Sequence record: OR352954
Source: Escherichia phage AV124
Reading direction: 5' to 3' (one strand)
Length of the DNA: 64,000 nt
The translations under genes and the position numbers were made by a program. Shown here piece after piece: positions 3,262 through 62,934 of this stretch. The notes under the pieces were generated by a model, which was given only the letters and a program-made list of their open reading frames with translations, had not been told where the DNA came from and made no database searches. Position 1 is the stretch's first letter; each line of letters starts with the position of its first letter.

Positions 3262-4332
3262 ATGGAAAAGTTTGAAGTGATGCGATGCTATTCCGGTAGC
3301 CTCGCTTATGGCACAAATCTTCCAACTAGTGATGTGGATATTCGGGGTCTGTTCTGCGCCCCACCTAAATTCATCCGCACGCCGTTCTTTAACATCAAAG
3401 AGCAAACCTTGGAAGATGAAGAGGATGGGAAGATTTATGAGTTGACAAACTTCATGAGATTGTTTTCAGAGATGAACCCCAACATCATTGAACTGATGTT
3501 TGTCGATGACAAAGACATTTTACAAACCTCTGAAGTTTATGAATATCTTCGCACAATGGCCCCGGCACTGCTGACCAGTAAGGTAGCGTTCTCCTTCTCT
3601 GGGTATGCGATGGCACAGCTTAAACGTATTCGCGGTCATGATAAGTGGATCAGCAATCCGCAGCCTGAAGAAAAGCCTACGCAAAAAGAGTTCTTCCGAT
3701 TAGTTCACAACTATAGTGAGAACGAATTCCTTGCCGGGGCAATTAAGCACGATCGCTTCATGGAAGCAATGAACAATCTCAACGATATGTGTATCCTTGT
3801 ACCTTATGGGAACGATATCTATGGGGTGATGGAAAACTTCAGTAGCTCAGGGATGTTCAATGCTAACGGTTCAATTCGCCATGTTGACTATCAGCAACTT
3901 TCTGACTCTGACAAGCGGAGAAAACCTGTCTTTATTGTCAAATATTTGGCAGAGGAACACAAACAGGCCAAAGAGAAGCATCGTAACTATTGGACATGGA
4001 AACAGAACCGAAATGAAGTTCGTCACCAGCTCGAAGTTGATTTTGGTTATGACACGAAACATGCGATGCACCTTGTGCGCCTGATGCGTATGGCAGAAGA
4101 GATTCTTTCTGATGGGAAGGTCCTAGTGAAGCGTCCTGATGCTCAGGAACTTCTCGACATCCGGGCAGGTAAGTGGACTCTTGACGAACTGCTCTCTTGG
4201 GCTGATGAGAAGGACCGTTATATTCGTGAGGATCTGTACAAAAAGACACAGCTTCCTAAAATGGCGGATCTTGACCTGTTTGCTAGGGTTCTCATGACGG
4301 CTCAGGATATGTGTTGGAGTAAACTGGTATGA
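3262..4332 (+). CDS. Pol-beta superfamily nucleotidyltransferase
   Basis: N-terminal GS-x9-DVD motif (YSGSLAYGTNLPTSDVDIRG) typical of Pol-beta-fold nucleotidyltransferases; SD GGAGAG upstream. Confidence 0.55.
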   Translation: MEKFEVMRCYSGSLAYGTNLPTSDVDIRGLFCAPPKFIRTPFFNIKEQTLEDEEDGKIYELTNFMRLFSEMNPNIIELMFVDDKDILQTSEVYEYLRTMAPALLTSKVAFSFSGYAMAQLKRIRGHDKWISNPQPEEKPTQKEFFRLVHNYSENEFLAGAIKHDRFMEAMNNLNDMCILVPYGNDIYGVMENFSSSGMFNANGSIRHVDYQQLSDSDKRRKPVFIVKYLAEEHKQAKEKHRNYWTWKQNRNEVRHQLEVDFGYDTKHAMHLVRLMRMAEEILSDGKVLVKRPDAQELLDIRAGKWTLDELLSWADEKDRYIREDLYKKTQLPKMADLDLFARVLMTAQDMCWSKLV

Positions 4333-4541
4333 TTGAAGCACTGGTAGGAATATTTGGTGTTGCATATTCAATCATTGGCGTGATATACTCAATCAGGATG
4401 GAAAAGGACACAGTCCTTAAGCAAATCTATAAAGCCAAGACGGACCGGGACTGGTCTGAAATTTGTTTCACCATCGGTTTTGCATGGCCCTTCGGGGCCT
4501 TAATCCACTATGTTATGAGGAGAAGAAATGCGACAGCTTGA
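4329..4541 (+). CDS. hypothetical small membrane protein
   Basis: ATGA overlap with upstream gene; hydrophobic segments. Confidence 0.4.
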   Translation: MIEALVGIFGVAYSIIGVIYSIRMEKDTVLKQIYKAKTDRDWSEICFTIGFAWPFGALIHYVMRRRNATA

Positions 4542-4704
4542 GTTTATGGGGAGAATGGTAGAACTGGTTTCCGAATGGCAATCAGAATATAAGATGCACA
4601 GGAATCTCTCCGAAGAGCCTGAGAACTGGCCCGACACCAGAGATCAGGAAGATTGGTTGGGTGATTTCTTTGTTTGGCTACAATGTAAGGGGTATACAGT
4701 ATGA
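4528..4704 (+). CDS. hypothetical small protein (58 aa)
   Basis: ATG at 4528 preceded by GAGGAGAAG; below track size cut-off; fills gap between neighbours. Confidence 0.3.
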   Translation: MRQLEFMGRMVELVSEWQSEYKMHRNLSEEPENWPDTRDQEDWLGDFFVWLQCKGYTV

Positions 4705-4937
4705 GCTATGGGCCACTGACCGCAGAGCAGGCTAAGATCCTGCAAGACCGTTATTATGAGCAGCAAGGTATCAAGAAAGTTGTCTGGCCTTCTCCCGGTG
4801 ATGGTGATACCGGAACTGTGAAATGCATGCACGACGCTTGTCCTAATTGTGGTGGCACGGGTGTCAGAAAAGATGGCACTGGTTTATGCGTTCACGGCAT
4901 CTCTTGCCCTTGCCCTAAATGCAGCTTTAAGTGCTGA
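4701..4937 (+). CDS. hypothetical Cys-rich protein (putative zinc-binding)
   Basis: CPNCGG...CVHGISCPCPKCSFKC cysteine cluster. Confidence 0.4.
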   Translation: MSYGPLTAEQAKILQDRYYEQQGIKKVVWPSPGDGDTGTVKCMHDACPNCGGTGVRKDGTGLCVHGISCPCPKCSFKC

Positions 4938-5009
4938 ATCGTCCCTATCTTATATGATAACCCTGTTTTTCATGATAAAATGGATCTATCATTAAGATAG
5001 GAGGCTAGT

Positions 5010-5489
5010 ATGTTTCAAAAGATTGTACGTGAACACCCTATCCTTCGAGAGCACTGGCATACTCTGCTGGAAAAGGGTTTTATAGAAAACTCAAAAGGTT
5101 GCATCGCTCTCGTAAGGGAGCCTGTGACAGAAGAACGAGTTCTCGTCATAAGGGATGCCAAAAACGGCATCCTTTTTTCTATCAAAGTTGGTCGTCTGGA
5201 CGTCACTAGGGGTTCAAATACCATAAGACCAACAACTTACACTTTTCGTGTTGGAGACATGGGGAAGCTCTATCCAGAACATCTGGAAGAGGCCTTTGAT
5301 AGTTATGAAGGGTTCGAAGCCTCTATTCGTGATCTCTATAGATCGTTGGATAGGATTATCAGTGAACACAAGAAAACGCTAGGTGTAAAATACCGAGTAA
5401 AAGACTGGTTCAGAAATTCCAATAACCGCTGGTTTCTCCTAGCGGCAGTTCTCTACGGCCTGTTGACGGTATTTCTGACCTTGCACTAA
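5010..5489 (+). CDS. hypothetical protein with C-terminal transmembrane helix
   Basis: SD AGGAGG before ATG; C-terminal hydrophobic stretch WFLLAAVLYGLLTVFL. Confidence 0.5.
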   Translation: MFQKIVREHPILREHWHTLLEKGFIENSKGCIALVREPVTEERVLVIRDAKNGILFSIKVGRLDVTRGSNTIRPTTYTFRVGDMGKLYPEHLEEAFDSYEGFEASIRDLYRSLDRIISEHKKTLGVKYRVKDWFRNSNNRWFLLAAVLYGLLTVFLTLH

Positions 5490-5501
5490 GAGGAGATTCT
5501 T

Positions 5502-5876
5502 ATGAGAGATCGTCAGGAGTATTATCGTCAGTATGCCGCCCGTCGTCGTGAGATTGATCGTCAGCGGCGTTCTACACCAGAAGGTAAAGCAGAACAACTT
5601 CGTATCCGTCTTGCCCGTATTGAAGCAGAGAAACGCGCTACCCTTCATAGTGAGTGGGATGAGTTTGTCAGGGATGAGGCTGATCACTTGTGTTCTGTTC
5701 GTTGTGAAGATACTGGTATCAAGTGGGAACCAGACCACATGCTACCACTAAGGGCAACCAAAGTATCCGGCCTTAACTGTGGTGATAATATACAGGTGAT
5801 ACCTGCAACTCTCAACAGGAAGAAGAAAAACCGTATGATTTATACCGAAATGAATGAATGGTTGAAAGATGTATAG
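5502..5876 (+). CDS. HNH endonuclease
   Basis: WEPDHMLPL...GLNCGDNIQVIPATLNRKK resembles the HNH His-Asn-Asn core; SD AGAGGAG. Confidence 0.5.
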   Translation: MRDRQEYYRQYAARRREIDRQRRSTPEGKAEQLRIRLARIEAEKRATLHSEWDEFVRDEADHLCSVRCEDTGIKWEPDHMLPLRATKVSGLNCGDNIQVIPATLNRKKKNRMIYTEMNEWLKDV

Positions 5877-5908
5877 AAAAAACCCGGCGATTGCCGGTTT
5901 TTTTTTTA
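5877..5908. terminator. bidirectional rho-independent terminator
   Basis: A6-CCGGC-GATT-GCCGG-T10; stem-loop flanked by A-run and T-run between convergent genes. Confidence 0.65.
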
Positions 5909-6202
5909 TTGACCTTTGGATAGCTTTTCTATCACGAGATGGTCTGAATCATCCAGGTGCATCAGGTGATCAACTCGGATATCATGCAGGTATGGGAGTC
6001 CATCAACGTGGCAAAGAAACCATGATTCGTGACGAGGATAATATCCATTTACACCGAGAACGGTCTTCTCCAGCACAAGACAACGTTTACCGTTAAGGAT
6101 ATTATTCTCCGAGAATCCATACAACAGGCAGATTGAATCAACACAAACCTTATGGTCTGGCTCATTACGATCAGGCATACCACTATCTTCTAATTTCAGC
6201 AT
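5906..6202 (-). CDS. hypothetical protein
   Basis: Minus-strand ORF inside plus-strand block; overlaps upstream ORF by 7 nt. Confidence 0.4.
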   Translation of the reverse strand: MLKLEDSGMPDRNEPDHKVCVDSICLLYGFSENNILNGKRCLVLEKTVLGVNGYYPRHESWFLCHVDGLPYLHDIRVDHLMHLDDSDHLVIEKLSKGQ

Positions 6203-6435
6203 TTTTTATCTCCAAAGTTAAGTTCGCCATTCAACTTTTGTACACGGTGCGGGAGAATTTCCTGCCACCACCAATCCTTCTCATGAAGACGATAAGACAC
6301 ATAGACCTCTACGGTATCCTCGTCCTTACGGACAGTCCTGGTATAGATATCCCGAATGGTTGCTTCGAATTGACCGTCAACAAGGACGACCTCGTAAATT
6401 TTGTACTTGTCTTGTTCAAGAATTTGTTCTGACAT
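6196..6435 (-). CDS. hypothetical protein
   Basis: Minus-strand ORF, first gene of a two-gene opposite-strand cassette. Confidence 0.4.
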   Translation of the reverse strand: MSEQILEQDKYKIYEVVLVDGQFEATIRDIYTRTVRKDEDTVEVYVSYRLHEKDWWWQEILPHRVQKLNGELNFGDKKC

Positions 6436-9950: not shown

Positions 9951-9981
9951 AAGGGAGCCTGAAGAGGCTCCTTTTCTTTTA
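9951..9981 (+). terminator. rho-independent terminator
   Basis: GGAGCCT-GAAG-AGGCTCC stem-loop followed by TTTTCTTTT, directly after last plus-strand gene. Confidence 0.6.
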
Positions 9982-10022: not shown

Positions 10023-10834
10023 CATTATACGCCAAATCTCCTGAAGCGGGAGGATACAATCACCACCCCTGCGTGAAAGGTTGCACATCCCATTAACACA
10101 CATAATATGAAGGGTCTCCCCGATATGTCGATAAAACACCATTTCATAAACACATTGCCGTAACGTGTCGATGCCATAAACATTACGGTGCGAAGCACTT
10201 TGCCAAAGGCAAAAACCTCCGGTGCTATAAATATATCGCCTTGGGCGATTAGCCAGAGGCTAACCCGTACACGGGTAAATATATCGCGTAAACAGGCCCC
10301 TGTTTTCCCCGTATAACCACCCCTTCCCCCCGTGGGGAAATCAAAACATACCCCCTGCCGAAAATATCACTTGCCGAAAAATATCATGGCTTGGTCCTTG
10401 GGTAAAAAATATTGTATTCGCACCATCTGCGGTGTTAGACGGACAGCTCCGGGCGTCAACTATCTTTACGGATCTTTACAAAATATCATGGGCAAGGTCG
10501 ATCCGGTTCCCGGTTCCTCGGGGCCTCTTCAGGCATGATAGTTACTTGCCGAAACTAATAATAATTGGGTGTGTCAGATAGCAAGCTTATGGTTTGCCAG
10601 CTTAGAGCACGATTTGCTATTGACTTGTTTATATTTATATGAATTACACCATTTAACATAAAACACGTTATACGCACTGACCAACAACGCATAGCAGACT
10701 AATAATGCCCCAATGTTACCAGTGTGACGCATAGGACAGCCGCTTCAGGTCATTACATGGTGTGACTGTTACTGTGGTGATAGTTTCATATGTGATTATT
10801 CATGTTTTAGGGTTGTTTTGTGAATGAGACGACG

Positions 10835-10889
10835 AATGAGAATCATTATTATTTCGATTTCGAATTCAATTTCGAAATGAGAATCATTC
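10835..10889. repeat. two copies of palindrome AATGAGAATCATT flanking TTCGA-rich palindromic core
   Basis: AATGAGAATCATT at 10835-10847 and 10877-10889; related copies at 19711-19723 and 19744-19758. Confidence 0.6.
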
Positions 10890-11179
10890 CGCAAATATAA
10901 ATATTTTGTAAATTTATAAATAAAAGCTTGACGAGGGAAGAGAATCGTGTTTAGCAATACATACTCTTTGAGCATCATTATCATTTGCGACTAATTCCCA
11001 TAAACCCTTGCTACGCAAGGGATTGATAGATATTTTCGATAATAAAAACACTTGACACTTCAGATAAAATCATGCTCAAAAACAAGCCTTTTCTCATAAG
11101 ATACGATCATCATTCTAATGGTTTGTCAACCATTAAACACGAATTAATTTGATTAAACTGCTAATTGTTTACAGGGTTT

Positions 11180-12585: not shown

Positions 12586-12633
12586 AATTGCTTTACCTCA
12601 AAGGATAGCGGGGCGGCTAGCGCCCCGGTTTGA

Positions 12634-23777: not shown

Positions 23778-24056
23778 TCACAAGACGGTGTACTCATACG
23801 TACTCATCCCTCTGCGTTCTGTAGATAGATACCCTAGTGCCACGAGGTTTTTTATGGATGTACTGATTGACCTTTCAGACACACCCGTAGCTTCACTAAT
23901 CGTTTTATAACTAGCAAAGTATTTCTTCCCTTTTGTCTCTAAGTATCCTGCCTTGTACTTTATGTGGAGCAGGACACGAAGATCTGTGCATGACAGGTTC
24001 TTATCATGCAGCTCTTTTTCGTCACAAGCTACCCACTTCTCACTCTTTTTTGGCAT
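23778..24056 (-). CDS. winged-helix DNA-binding protein (putative transcriptional regulator)
   Basis: ASYKTISEATGVSERSISTSIKNLVALGYL is a typical HTH recognition pattern; start trimmed to ATG after GGAG. Confidence 0.45.
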   Translation of the reverse strand: MPKKSEKWVACDEKELHDKNLSCTDLRVLLHIKYKAGYLETKGKKYFASYKTISEATGVSERSISTSIKNLVALGYLSTERRGMSTYEYTVL

Positions 24057-24450
24057 CCAAGTATTTCTCCAAATGAGTGAGTACAACCCCTTGGGCATAC
24101 TCTTGAGATGCATCATTGTGGTGAAGAACAGCCAGATCACATCCAAGTTTGTGCAAACTCCTCTCGAATGGAGACAAGTGTGTCATCATAACTTCGACCA
24201 GACTAAGCTCTTCTTCTGTGATGTGGAGGGGATCATCCGTGAAATCCCTGGAGATGAGAATCTCTCTCTCACCTCCTTCTCCGTGACCATAGACCTCGAC
24301 AATCCTCCTGTTACAGAAAATTTCGTACTGATAGCCGTTCCAATCTTGACCGTCTTGGGCTTCAAAGTTCACAATGAGGCAACAACCAAGCCCCAACAAG
24401 AGTACCTGGAAATCCAAATTGTGAACAATTTTTTTATTTAAAGTGTTCAT
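24040..24450 (-). CDS. hypothetical acidic protein
   Basis: ORF in minus-strand array. Confidence 0.4.
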   Translation of the reverse strand: MNTLNKKIVHNLDFQVLLLGLGCCLIVNFEAQDGQDWNGYQYEIFCNRRIVEVYGHGEGGEREILISRDFTDDPLHITEEELSLVEVMMTHLSPFERSLHKLGCDLAVLHHNDASQEYAQGVVLTHLEKYLDAKKE

Positions 24451-59525: not shown

Positions 59526-60713
59526 ATGAGCGTAGTAAACGAATACAAAGACCCAATGTCCGGCAAAGTAAACCACTTCGCAAAAGGCAGCATCAAATTC
59601 ATCAGCATCAAACCCGTGAAGAATGCTGATCAAGATGGTATTAAGCGTACCCACATCCCTGCACGTAACGGTCAACCTGCTAAGGTGATTGAAGCCACCC
59701 ACACTATCAGCTTTTTAATGCAGGAAGTTGATGCGGATAATAACGTGGTAGACCCACAGAGCCAAGGCGATTGGATTGGTATGGGTGAGAAGAAACTTCA
59801 CGCCAGCCACACGGATAAGGTTCAGGTCAAGTTTGATTCCGGTTATAAAGATATTCTAGCTGGCATGGTTGTATCTTTCCCGCTGAAAGTCTCTAAGAAT
59901 GGGGATAAAACCTATATCAACGGCACTTTAAGCGGTAAGACATTCAACATTCTGGATGAAAGCAAAGCGGGCCAAGCTGCCCCTCGTCAACAGCAGTCTT
60001 CTGCCCAGGCAGCACAGTCGGGCGGTGGTGTTAAGATCTATGGTGAGATTACCGAAATCGTAGGTAATCTGGCGACTGTTAATGACGAGAAGAACGGCCC
60101 CGGCGGTGTAGTTCTTTCCGATGAACAACTGGCACAGGTATCTGTTGGTGGACGAATGACTGCCTTTGTGGATATGTCTAACGGTAACATCCTGAATGGA
60201 TTCAAAGCTTACGGCCCCGCAGGTCAGAACAACGGCGGTTCTGGTGGTAAAAAGAGTGGTGGGTACGACCAATTTGGTGTTGAAACAGGGCACGCCATTA
60301 ACGGTCTGAAAGAGTTGATGGGTGCTGGTTATAAAGTGAAGGATGAGCTGGAGACAGCTAAAGCCATTCACCGTGCCACATTGGATATGAAAGCGTTCGT
60401 TGCGGAGCGTACTGGTAAGCCAGTCGATTCTAACCCGGTTGGTGCAAGTGCAGGCAACGCAATTCTGGTTGCATGTAGCCGTTTCAATGCTAAGTCAGAT
60501 GTTTCTGAAGCAACGATTCTGAACGCAGCCAAAGATGTGTATACAAAGCTCTCTGAGCCGCTTTATACGTTCATTAGTGAAAGTGCCAAGGGTGCCGATC
60601 AAACTCCGTCACAGCCCGTCCAGGAGCGTTTAACGACACCTCCTGCCCAAGAGGCGCCCGCTATGGATTTTGATGAGCCACCGATGGACTGGGACGAAGA
60701 AATACCGTTTTGA
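59526..60713 (+). CDS. single-stranded DNA-binding protein (SSB-like)
   Basis: Gly-rich linker (GQNNGGSGGKKSGG) and acidic C-terminal tail MDFDEPPMDWDEEIPF typical of SSB; ATG after AAGGAGAGAAG. Confidence 0.55.
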   Translation: MSVVNEYKDPMSGKVNHFAKGSIKFISIKPVKNADQDGIKRTHIPARNGQPAKVIEATHTISFLMQEVDADNNVVDPQSQGDWIGMGEKKLHASHTDKVQVKFDSGYKDILAGMVVSFPLKVSKNGDKTYINGTLSGKTFNILDESKAGQAAPRQQQSSAQAAQSGGGVKIYGEITEIVGNLATVNDEKNGPGGVVLSDEQLAQVSVGGRMTAFVDMSNGNILNGFKAYGPAGQNNGGSGGKKSGGYDQFGVETGHAINGLKELMGAGYKVKDELETAKAIHRATLDMKAFVAERTGKPVDSNPVGASAGNAILVACSRFNAKSDVSEATILNAAKDVYTKLSEPLYTFISESAKGADQTPSQPVQERLTTPPAQEAPAMDFDEPPMDWDEEIPF

Positions 60714-60715
60714 TA

Positions 60716-61141
60716 ATGAAAAGATGTTCTAATTGTGGGGCTGAAAAGCCCCTTGAACAATTTCAGATCAGGAGGGCTTCTAAGGATGGATATACCGCAT
60801 CGTGCAAGATTTGTCTTAAGGAACGCGACCGAATCAGGGACCAAGATCCTGAACGTAAAGCAATGAAAGAACGATACGTTAAAGGTATCGGAAGAGAAGC
60901 GGCAGCACGAGCAAAGCGGAAGTATATCGAGAAGAATCCGAAGAAGAGATCTGTGCATATAAAAACAGGTAATGCGATCCGTGACGGCAAGATATTTAAA
61001 CAGCCTTGTGAAGTTTGCGGAAGTGAAAATGTACAAGCTCATCATTGTGATTACGATAAACCTTTAGAGGTTATGTGGCTATGTCCTATTCATCATGAAG
61101 AGTGGCACAGGCAATACGGCGAGGCAAAGAACGCTATATAA
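60716..61141 (+). CDS. HNH endonuclease (zinc-finger type)
   Basis: CSNCG...CKIC zinc-finger pair and HHCDYDKPLEVMWLCPIHHEEWH HNH core. Confidence 0.65.
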   Translation: MKRCSNCGAEKPLEQFQIRRASKDGYTASCKICLKERDRIRDQDPERKAMKERYVKGIGREAAARAKRKYIEKNPKKRSVHIKTGNAIRDGKIFKQPCEVCGSENVQAHHCDYDKPLEVMWLCPIHHEEWHRQYGEAKNAI

Positions 61142-61173
61142 AAGAAAAGGCTCCCAAATGGGAGCCTTTTTTA
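61142..61173. terminator. bidirectional rho-independent terminator at strand switch
   Basis: A-run, GGCTCCC-AAAT-GGGAGCC, T6; between convergent HNH (+) and tail fibre (-) genes. Confidence 0.7.
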
Positions 61174-62934
61174 TTACGGTCTTTGATAGACAGCTACATC
61201 ATAGACAGTCCCTCTTCCACAATAGGTTACTTGTAGAATTGTAACTGAATTTGCAGTAGTGCTGATCGTACCACCATTTATGATTTTATAAGATGCATCA
61301 AGGGTGACGGCATGTCCGCCAGTTGCATCCTGGAACAGATAGATCGTGGCAGTAAAAGCACTACCAAGATTTGCCCAAGGCCCGATAGTTAAAGTATTTG
61401 TCACATCTACGTTGTAGATGTTATTCATCTTCGTCAGATCAGAGCCTGTCCCTCCTGGTGTCCAAGTTGTTCCTGCGGAAGGTGTGGTAACAGAACCAGG
61501 GGTTGTTCCTACAAAATTCGCAGTGACCTTAGGAGCCGTTGCTTCACCCGTAATAACGAGGGATGCACCTTTTAGAGACCCGTATGCCTCTATTGTGGTG
61601 GTTGCCAGAACGGAGTTAGGGTTAATGTCCTTCCCGTTGACATCAACAGAAACGCCCGTTAGAGTACCAAGTACGTTAAGATTGTTTACAGTTGTTGTGC
61701 CTGTCCCACCATTATTAAGGTTGGCGTTTCCAGTAACTGTAAGGTTGGTGCTTACCGTAGCTGCCCCAGTAACTGCAAGCAGGCCCGTGATGGAGAGGTT
61801 TCCTGCAACAGAGCTAGCACTACCGGCTGTAAATCCCCCAGTTAATGTGCTGTTTCCATCGACTGTTAATGAACTTACTACGCCTAAATTCTGAATAGAG
61901 GCACTTCCGAGAGTTGTTACACCGTTTACAGTTAGATCAGACCCTATCTCGGCTGTTGTCGTTGTGGCAATAGAGTTGGGGAGAATGTCTAAGCCATCAA
62001 CACCGACATTGACACCGGACAACGAACCCGTTACTCTTACGTTTTCAAGTTCTGTCGTTCCGGTTACCTTAAGTCTTGGTTCCGTAGAGGCCTTGGAAGA
62101 GTTCCCTCGGATATACACATAGTCGAAGGTGTTATTACCGACACCAGTTAATGACATTGTGGTGTTATCTGCACTAGCTGTCCCATTCACAATAACTGCG
62201 GAAGTCAGATTATTGGTTTGAACAGAGTTCGGAGATATGATAGTCTTCAGATAGTTAGAGGCAGCGGTGTAGTCAAAAGAAAGAGTGGCAGTTTGTCCAG
62301 ATAACGAAATTTTCTGGAATTTACCAAGCACACCAGAGGCATCAAGCGTCCCACCAAATTGGGATGTCCCAGAAACAACCAATGTGTTAAGGGTTGAAGC
62401 ACCAACCACCGTAAGAGCAGCATAACTTGGAGAAGACCCAGCAAGAGAATTGATCGCTGCTGCGACAGCCAAGTTGACAAATGCAGTTGTCGCTATTGCA
62501 CCACTATTACTTCCCTGAGCAGGGGTAGGCGCTGTCGGAGAACCGACAAATGCAGGGGTATTAAGAGGTGCAAATTTTTCAGAAACTACAACGGAGTCAT
62601 TATAAACTTTCCAAGCGGTGCTTGTGGACGGATCGGCAGGTAAAGTGATAGGTGTAGATGGTGACGCTCCTGGGGCATACCACCAGAAAGTCCCTGCTGA
62701 ATTGGTGAAGGAATACAGTTGATTAAAAACTGTCGCCTGTGTACCAGCCACCCAAGGTTGTGGTGGTGTTTTAAAATACACATTGTCAAGAAGCGCTTTA
62801 CGTAATGTTGGAATCGTGCTACCATCTTCTACAATAACAGTGTCGATCGCCGATCCGTTGACCACCTTATGGAGACGCTCAGAATCCTCGATAACCTGAT
62901 CCACAGCCTGTTCAAATTGTGTTGTATCAGCCAT
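61174..62934 (-). CDS. tail fibre protein
   Basis: 586 aa, Gly/Ser/Thr/Asn-rich with repeated TVxG / LTVTG beta-rich segments typical of phage fibres. Confidence 0.6.
   Translation of the reverse strand: MADTTQFEQAVDQVIEDSERLHKVVNGSAIDTVIVEDGSTIPTLRKALLDNVYFKTPPQPWVAGTQATVFNQLYSFTNSAGTFWWYAPGASPSTPITLPADPSTSTAWKVYNDSVVVSEKFAPLNTPAFVGSPTAPTPAQGSNSGAIATTAFVNLAVAAAINSLAGSSPSYAALTVVGASTLNTLVVSGTSQFGGTLDASGVLGKFQKISLSGQTATLSFDYTAASNYLKTIISPNSVQTNNLTSAVIVNGTASADNTTMSLTGVGNNTFDYVYIRGNSSKASTEPRLKVTGTTELENVRVTGSLSGVNVGVDGLDILPNSIATTTTAEIGSDLTVNGVTTLGSASIQNLGVVSSLTVDGNSTLTGGFTAGSASSVAGNLSITGLLAVTGAATVSTNLTVTGNANLNNGGTGTTTVNNLNVLGTLTGVSVDVNGKDINPNSVLATTTIEAYGSLKGASLVITGEATAPKVTANFVGTTPGSVTTPSAGTTWTPGGTGSDLTKMNNIYNVDVTNTLTIGPWANLGSAFTATIYLFQDATGGHAVTLDASYKIINGGTISTTANSVTILQVTYCGRGTVYDVAVYQRP

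Follow-up and report, generated by a model that had tools for sequence, protein, structure and literature searches.

A predicted bidirectional intrinsic terminator at a convergent gene junction in a Mydovirus genome

Bidirectional terminators are expected in phage genomes where transcription units converge, as set out in the paper on coliphage rV5, which places one between genes 26 and 27 (Kropinski et al. 2013, PMC3606486). In rV5, the unit with the late genes (genes 27–81) ends at such a convergent junction with a predicted bidirectional terminator (PMC3606486). Sigma-70-type promoters were predicted genome-wide in the same phage (PMC3606486), which implies host RNA polymerase, and the paper on CB7 reports no phage RNA polymerase gene (PMC7344957), which makes host-type intrinsic termination the relevant mechanism. 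In the Pseudomonas phage LUZ7, the bidirectional intrinsic terminator T50 has been validated in reporter assays, with 97–99% termination in antisense orientation (PMC10204088). Most phage terminators were weakly active when tested in reverse orientation (PMC10204088). For bidirectional terminators between convergent genes of E. coli, collision-driven termination has been shown (bioRxiv 10.1101/2022.10.23.513370), a mechanism that the LUZ7 authors also suggest for convergent gene pairs in phages (PMC10204088). Closest to the locus described here, the GenBank records of Proteus phage Mydo (MK024806, record 129669–129705) and Salmonella phage PVP-SE1 (NC_016071, record 24032–24073) carry terminator annotations for each strand of the corresponding junction. 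A literature search on Vequintavirinae transcriptomics returned no relevant transcript mapping for any member.

The window, that is, the whole stretch of 64,000 nucleotides analysed here, belongs to a Mydovirus (Vequintavirinae) with ∼97% identity to Klebsiella phage vB_KpnM_Iguana_ER37 and 94–97% identity to other Klebsiella, Raoultella and Proteus members. Mapping of the Iguana_ER37 annotation delineated a rightward block from ∼27.1 to 61.1 kb with genes for thymidylate kinase, rIIA, rIIB, helicase, primase/helicase and DNA polymerase, as well as NMN adenylyltransferase and PnuC, and a leftward block from 61174 with tail-fibre, tail-fibre assembly and baseplate genes. The blocks meet at positions 61142–61173, the entire 32-nt gap between two convergent stop codons: TAA of the rightward ORF at 61139–61141 and tta (TAA on the minus strand) of the leftward 586-aa ORF at 61174–61176. 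The features of this junction are as follows.

59526..60713, plus strand: conserved gene 5' of the endonuclease gene (phrog_4477); its open frame reaches back to 59442.
60716..61141, plus strand: last rightward gene, encoding a free-standing HNH/His-Me-type endonuclease of 141 aa (phrog_2340 endonuclease, E 2e-43).
61142..61173: whole element, a predicted two-way intrinsic terminator filling the gap between the convergent stops.
61142..61148: A-rich run aagaaaa; on the minus strand the U-tract UUUUCUU, which runs on as UUAUAUA into the stop codon of the endonuclease gene.
61149..61155: 5' arm of the GC core stem, GGCTCCC, which covaries with the 3' arm across genera.
61156..61159: tetraloop aaat; TTTT or ATTT in close relatives, varying freely.
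61160..61166: 3' arm of the GC core stem, GGGAGCC.
61167..61172: T-run tttttt, the U-tract for plus-strand transcripts; an a and the stop codon of the tail-fibre gene (tta) come next.
61174..62934, minus strand: tail-fibre gene, 586 aa, last of the leftward structural block (phrog_4549 tail fiber, E 6e-209).

A first-pass annotation had put the element between the last rightward gene and the leftward tail-fibre gene. This position was exact, as the element is the gap itself and the leftward neighbour matched a tail-fibre family; records of relatives also name the counterpart of this gene tail fiber protein. The same annotation had called the element a boundary between the replication module and the late structural module. 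This was supported, as the gene content of the two blocks makes the element the boundary between a replication/nucleotide-metabolism module and a structural module, with the caveat that a mobile HNH-type endonuclease gene, not a replication gene, comes last on the rightward side. For the replication block, early/middle is probably the better label. The claim that the element marks the early-to-late strand switch carries a caveat too, as the junction is indeed convergent but is one of two in the window and not the sole one.

The second convergent junction, at ∼9.95–12.63 kb, carries two separate terminator-like hairpins ∼2.6 kb apart.

9951..9974: hairpin GGGAGCC-tgaaga-GGCTCC with a T-run on the plus strand; the T-tail is good on plus and weak on minus.
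12609..12627: hairpin CGGGGCG-gctag-CGCCCCG.

The ∼2.6 kb between these hairpins contains no ORF of at least 100 aa, and four TATAAATA motifs lie at 10226–10922 within this junction. Across the window, this T4-type late-promoter motif had 5 matches versus 2.1 expected; no match fell near the tail-fibre block, and the motif search was uninformative on timing. Sigma-70-like sites were in excess over the first 20 kb (62 versus 37 ± 7). ARAGORN detected no tRNA or tmRNA genes in the window (1–64000), and Pfam no domain in the tail-fibre protein or in the protein encoded at 59526–60713.

Both the anatomy and the position of the element can be read directly from the DNA. On the plus strand, the gap consists of aagaaaa, GGCTCCC, aaat, GGGAGCC, tttttt and a final a. 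Positions 61145–61155 pair with 61160–61170 in a stem of 11 perfect pairs; its 7-bp core, closed by a tetraloop, contains six G-C pairs, and the last four A's of the A-rich run are able to lengthen it. With an A-tract 5' and a T-tract 3' of the hairpin, each strand encodes a hairpin and a U-tract, which follows directly 3' of the core (UUUUUUAUU on the plus strand and UUUUCUUUU on the minus strand, with a C breaking the latter at its fifth nucleotide). On both strands, the core of the terminator hairpin starts 7 nt past the stop codon, with no co-oriented gene beyond. The symmetric A-run/hairpin/T-run arrangement noted earlier was borne out: in either orientation the stem is followed by a U-tract, and the hairpin folds on both strands. 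RNA folding yielded a minimum free energy of −26.9 kcal/mol on the plus strand (z −6.5) and −26.1 kcal/mol on the minus strand (z −7.3), in each case equalled by none of 200 shuffles. The core hairpin accounts for −13.7 kcal/mol and the 11-bp form with its A:U extension for −18.0 kcal/mol on either strand. Within the 64-kb window, this is the sole perfect hairpin of at least 11 bp (loop 3–8; 0.09 expected by chance) and the sole symmetric A-run/GC-hairpin/T-run element (0.01 expected), with chance expectations derived from 100 dinucleotide-preserving shuffles of the window. A chance origin of the hairpin is ruled out.

A consensus terminator scanner called 61142–61173 on the minus strand only. 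An absent T-run was rejected as the reason, since six T's are present; the missing plus-strand call is probably an artefact, because greedy stem extension would absorb four of these six T's. In Rfam, no family reached its gathering threshold (best match Phe_leader, 31.7 bits versus a threshold of 55). Sub-threshold matches at 61033–61238 comprised Phe_leader (both strands), ctRNA_p42d, STnc40 and STnc100, and those overlapping the gap all contain the terminator hairpin or finish at it. A strong terminator attracts such weak matches from families whose models end in a terminator.

To place the element among its relatives, we compared the junction preceding the tail or tail-fibre gene in 16 phages from about eight genera and two subfamilies (Mydovirus, Seunavirus, Henunavirus, Avunavirus, Certrevirus, Phapecoctavirus, Justusliebigvirus and one unclassified Stephanstirmvirinae phage). 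Diversity was drawn from the GenBank phage collection, and a scan of IMG/VR yielded 7 loci. For pair counting, each hairpin was anchored on its own fold by script; a MAFFT alignment of the 16 junctions was not used for the counts because it misregistered the 3' arm of stems beginning GGG. An A-run, a GC hairpin and a T-run were present at 16/16 junctions, in gaps of 27–64 nt. The phages carried seven stem sequences (GGCTCCC, GGAGCC, GGAGCCT, GGGAGCT, GGCACCC, GGGAACC and GGGAGCC), and Watson-Crick pairing was perfect in all 16 stems; core positions 3, 4 and 5 had three kinds of base pair each. When arms were swapped between stem variants, pairing occurred at 63% of positions. Loops varied even between close relatives (AAAT, ATTT and TTTT). 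The A-run was AAAGAAAA or AAAAGAAA in 12 of the 16 junctions and about as conserved as the T-run. These compensatory stem changes indicate that an RNA structure is conserved and not a fixed DNA recognition sequence, and the pattern is the one expected for an RNA hairpin that would have to work when either strand is transcribed.

The gene order at this junction has its own distribution. In rV5-type phages (Vequintavirus), at least eight further rightward genes, in place of the tail-fibre gene, come after the gene with the SSB-like tail (rV5_ev147, 3727–6224). Because the rV5 gene order differs, the junction architecture is common to Mydovirus, Seunavirus, Certrevirus and the examined Stephanstirmvirinae but not to rV5.

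Overall, we consider it likely that 61142–61173 is a bidirectional intrinsic (Rho-independent) terminator used by host RNA polymerase. The bidirectional terminator proposed at first pass thereby keeps its standing as a prediction, with sequence features on both strands and with Mydo and PVP-SE1 annotated on both strands; the observation itself was confirmed, and the terminator interpretation was supported in every part that sequence can test. Rightward transcripts, from the replication/nucleotide-metabolism block that now ends with the endonuclease gene, would form the GGCUCCC-AAAU-GGGAGCC hairpin followed by UUUUUUAUU, and these early/middle transcripts would be released at about 61172–61176. 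Leftward transcripts from the tail-fibre/baseplate block would form the complementary hairpin followed by UUUUCUUUU, with release of the structural-gene transcripts at about 61139–61144. The overlap between the two transcript ends would equal the hairpin in length, and a protective 3' stem-loop would be left on both mRNAs. We propose that termination from both sides insulates the converging units from each other and limits antisense read-through. That termination actually occurs, how efficient it would be in each direction and when the two units would be expressed are points that we infer from these features, and host polymerase modification or late-transcription factors of these phages may alter how the terminator is read.

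Efficiency may also differ by direction, given the C that interrupts the minus-strand U-tract. Taken further, this would leave a terminator that is efficient in one direction only, the mirror tract on the other strand merely adding A:U pairs to the stem. Besides the interrupting C, the weak reverse activity of most phage terminators (PMC10204088) fits such asymmetry, as does the window's own terminator-like hairpin at 9951–9974 with its strand-dependent T-tail. However, the two U-tails at 61142–61173 score nearly alike (weighted 4.79 and 4.53, maximum 7.15), the A-run is conserved across the 16 phages to about the same degree as the T-run, and genes converge on the gap from both sides while it holds no other terminator candidate. 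We regard a one-way terminator as improbable.

Less probable still is a hairpin that acts mainly as a pause site, with release brought about by head-on and rear-end polymerase collisions and not by autonomous intrinsic termination. Collision-driven termination at convergent genes of E. coli (bioRxiv 10.1101/2022.10.23.513370) and its suggested extension to phage pairs in the LUZ7 study are in line with this. The E. coli elements are described, however, as unlike intrinsic terminators, whereas the element in the window has textbook intrinsic features on both strands; moreover, polymerases would seldom meet there should expression of the two units be separated in time.

The gene immediately upstream of the predicted terminator encodes an endonuclease whose open frame starts at TTG 60710. 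It contains the HHCDYDKPLEVMWLCPIHHEEWH motif of His-Me/HNH nucleases, and its Pfam match, DUF6510, scored 19.7 bits, below the cut-off of 26.4. Within Mydovirus, an endonuclease is present at this site in Iguana, the K54_rec series, KNP2, Ro1 and NDO71 and missing from Mydo, KB57 and KpS8. Homologues lie directly between the upstream gene and the terminator in EspYZU14 and LNA4 (Seunavirus), pEa_SNUABM_56 (Henunavirus), and nepoznato and phiWec188 (Phapecoctavirus), and the same-position homologues of these four genera share 41–72% amino-acid identity. The site was compared over the following intervals.

60690..61141 of the window: same-site comparison with L001 7270–7368, L004 3400–3830, L005 3030–3475 and L026 1715–2160.

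The least credible reading, that the palindrome is part of a mobile endonuclease cassette or a protein-binding or cleavage site and not a transcription signal, draws on the same-family endonuclease gene ending right at the A-run in six phages (Mydovirus, Seunavirus, Henunavirus and Phapecoctavirus), but the same hairpin stands in relatives without the endonuclease (Mydo, GAP31, PVP-SE1 and phAPEC8), compensatory change indicates an RNA structure, and a hairpin travelling with the cassette was rejected because stem type tracks the resident lineage (LNA4 as GAP31, the window as Mydo, EspYZU14 as PVP-SE1) and not endonuclease presence.

With the hairpin taken as a resident terminator, the endonuclease next to it merits a separate observation. 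The conserved protein encoded at 59526–60713 ends in an SSB-like acidic tip, DWDEEIPF (60660–60713), like that of bacterial SSB. In all compared genomes with an endonuclease at the site, the upstream protein has the C-terminus D(F/W)D(D/E)x(I/V)PF, with PF as its last residues in 6/6 genomes (five with an endonuclease of the window's family, plus CB7 with an unrelated HNH gene); the upstream proteins of phAPEC8 and 24-2-1 likewise end at PF. In Mydo, PVP-SE1, GAP31 and alia, which are without the endonuclease, the tip is internal and is followed by a 15-residue extension, APIGLxxGRNFIHCI. The endonuclease gene stands in place of this 15-codon extension in 3/3 matched pairs, and this replacement leaves the upstream protein with a free SSB-like IPF terminus. 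Between the window and nepoznato, the endonucleases are 72% identical and the upstream proteins 34%, over the C-terminal third only. That the endonuclease is more alike than its neighbour argues for horizontal movement to the same site.

The pattern of presence looks like site-specific homing beside the terminator. Tentatively, the stretch just 5' of the terminator, after the D-D-D-I-P-F tip codons, could be a recurrent homing site for one free-standing HNH-type endonuclease family, a possibility that we hold to be somewhat unlikely. This family may move between phage genera and even subfamilies, and the incoming gene appears to borrow both the transcription of the resident operon and the resident terminator. 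If so, the terminator would mark a safe insertion site, and insertion would alter the C-terminus of the host protein. The upstream gene is also mosaic within the genus over 59526–60600: the window protein is 98% identical to that of Iguana, 69% to that of Mydo and 78% to that of the Seunavirus PVP-SE1, in flanking DNA of 94–97% identity across Mydovirus. Upstream of about 60606, nucleotide searches lose the relatives without the endonuclease.

The significance of the element beyond annotation is small. In the examined stretches of Iguana_ER37, the closest relative, regulatory features are absent, so Mydovirus annotations can take over the element with good confidence. Its shortness (∼32 nt), symmetry and strong prediction make it a potential compact insulator part for use in both directions in Enterobacteriaceae, and the 16-phage set illustrates cleanly, on a small scale, how compensatory evolution maintains a terminator.

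Compared with described systems, the element shares with LUZ7 T50 a hairpin with flanking A-tract and U-tract, a convergent gene pair and a lytic phage. In contrast, phage and sequence are unrelated, and T50 has reporter and long-read RNA evidence, whereas the element in the window is known by its sequence. Like the E. coli elements of Wang et al. 2023 and Ju et al. 2019, it lies between convergent genes; theirs have overlapping 3' ends and a shared hairpin. The E. coli class of Wang et al. 2023 is described as unlike intrinsic terminators and as needing collisions, whereas the element in the window is canonical on both strands. rV5 belongs to the same subfamily and follows the same logic of a bidirectional terminator at converging units, but in the rV5-type gene order the SSB-tail gene does not adjoin a tail-fibre gene. 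The nearest counterparts are those of Mydo and PVP-SE1, whose terminator annotations are predictions like that for the window. Flanks align with Mydovirus records at 94–97% identity, and stem, A-run and T-run are identical to those of Mydo, the loop alone differing (TTTT versus AAAT); PVP-SE1 shares the architecture, with GGAGCC/GGCTCC as its stem. In all three phages the terminator lies between the SSB-tail-bearing gene and a tail-fibre or tail gene. Unlike Mydo and PVP-SE1, the window has the 141-aa endonuclease gene between the conserved upstream gene and the terminator, and this gene shortens the gap to 32 nt and brings its stop codon against the A-run. Judged by sequence and position, 61142–61173 is the orthologue of the predicted terminators annotated in Mydo and PVP-SE1 and an ordinary member of a well-known kind.
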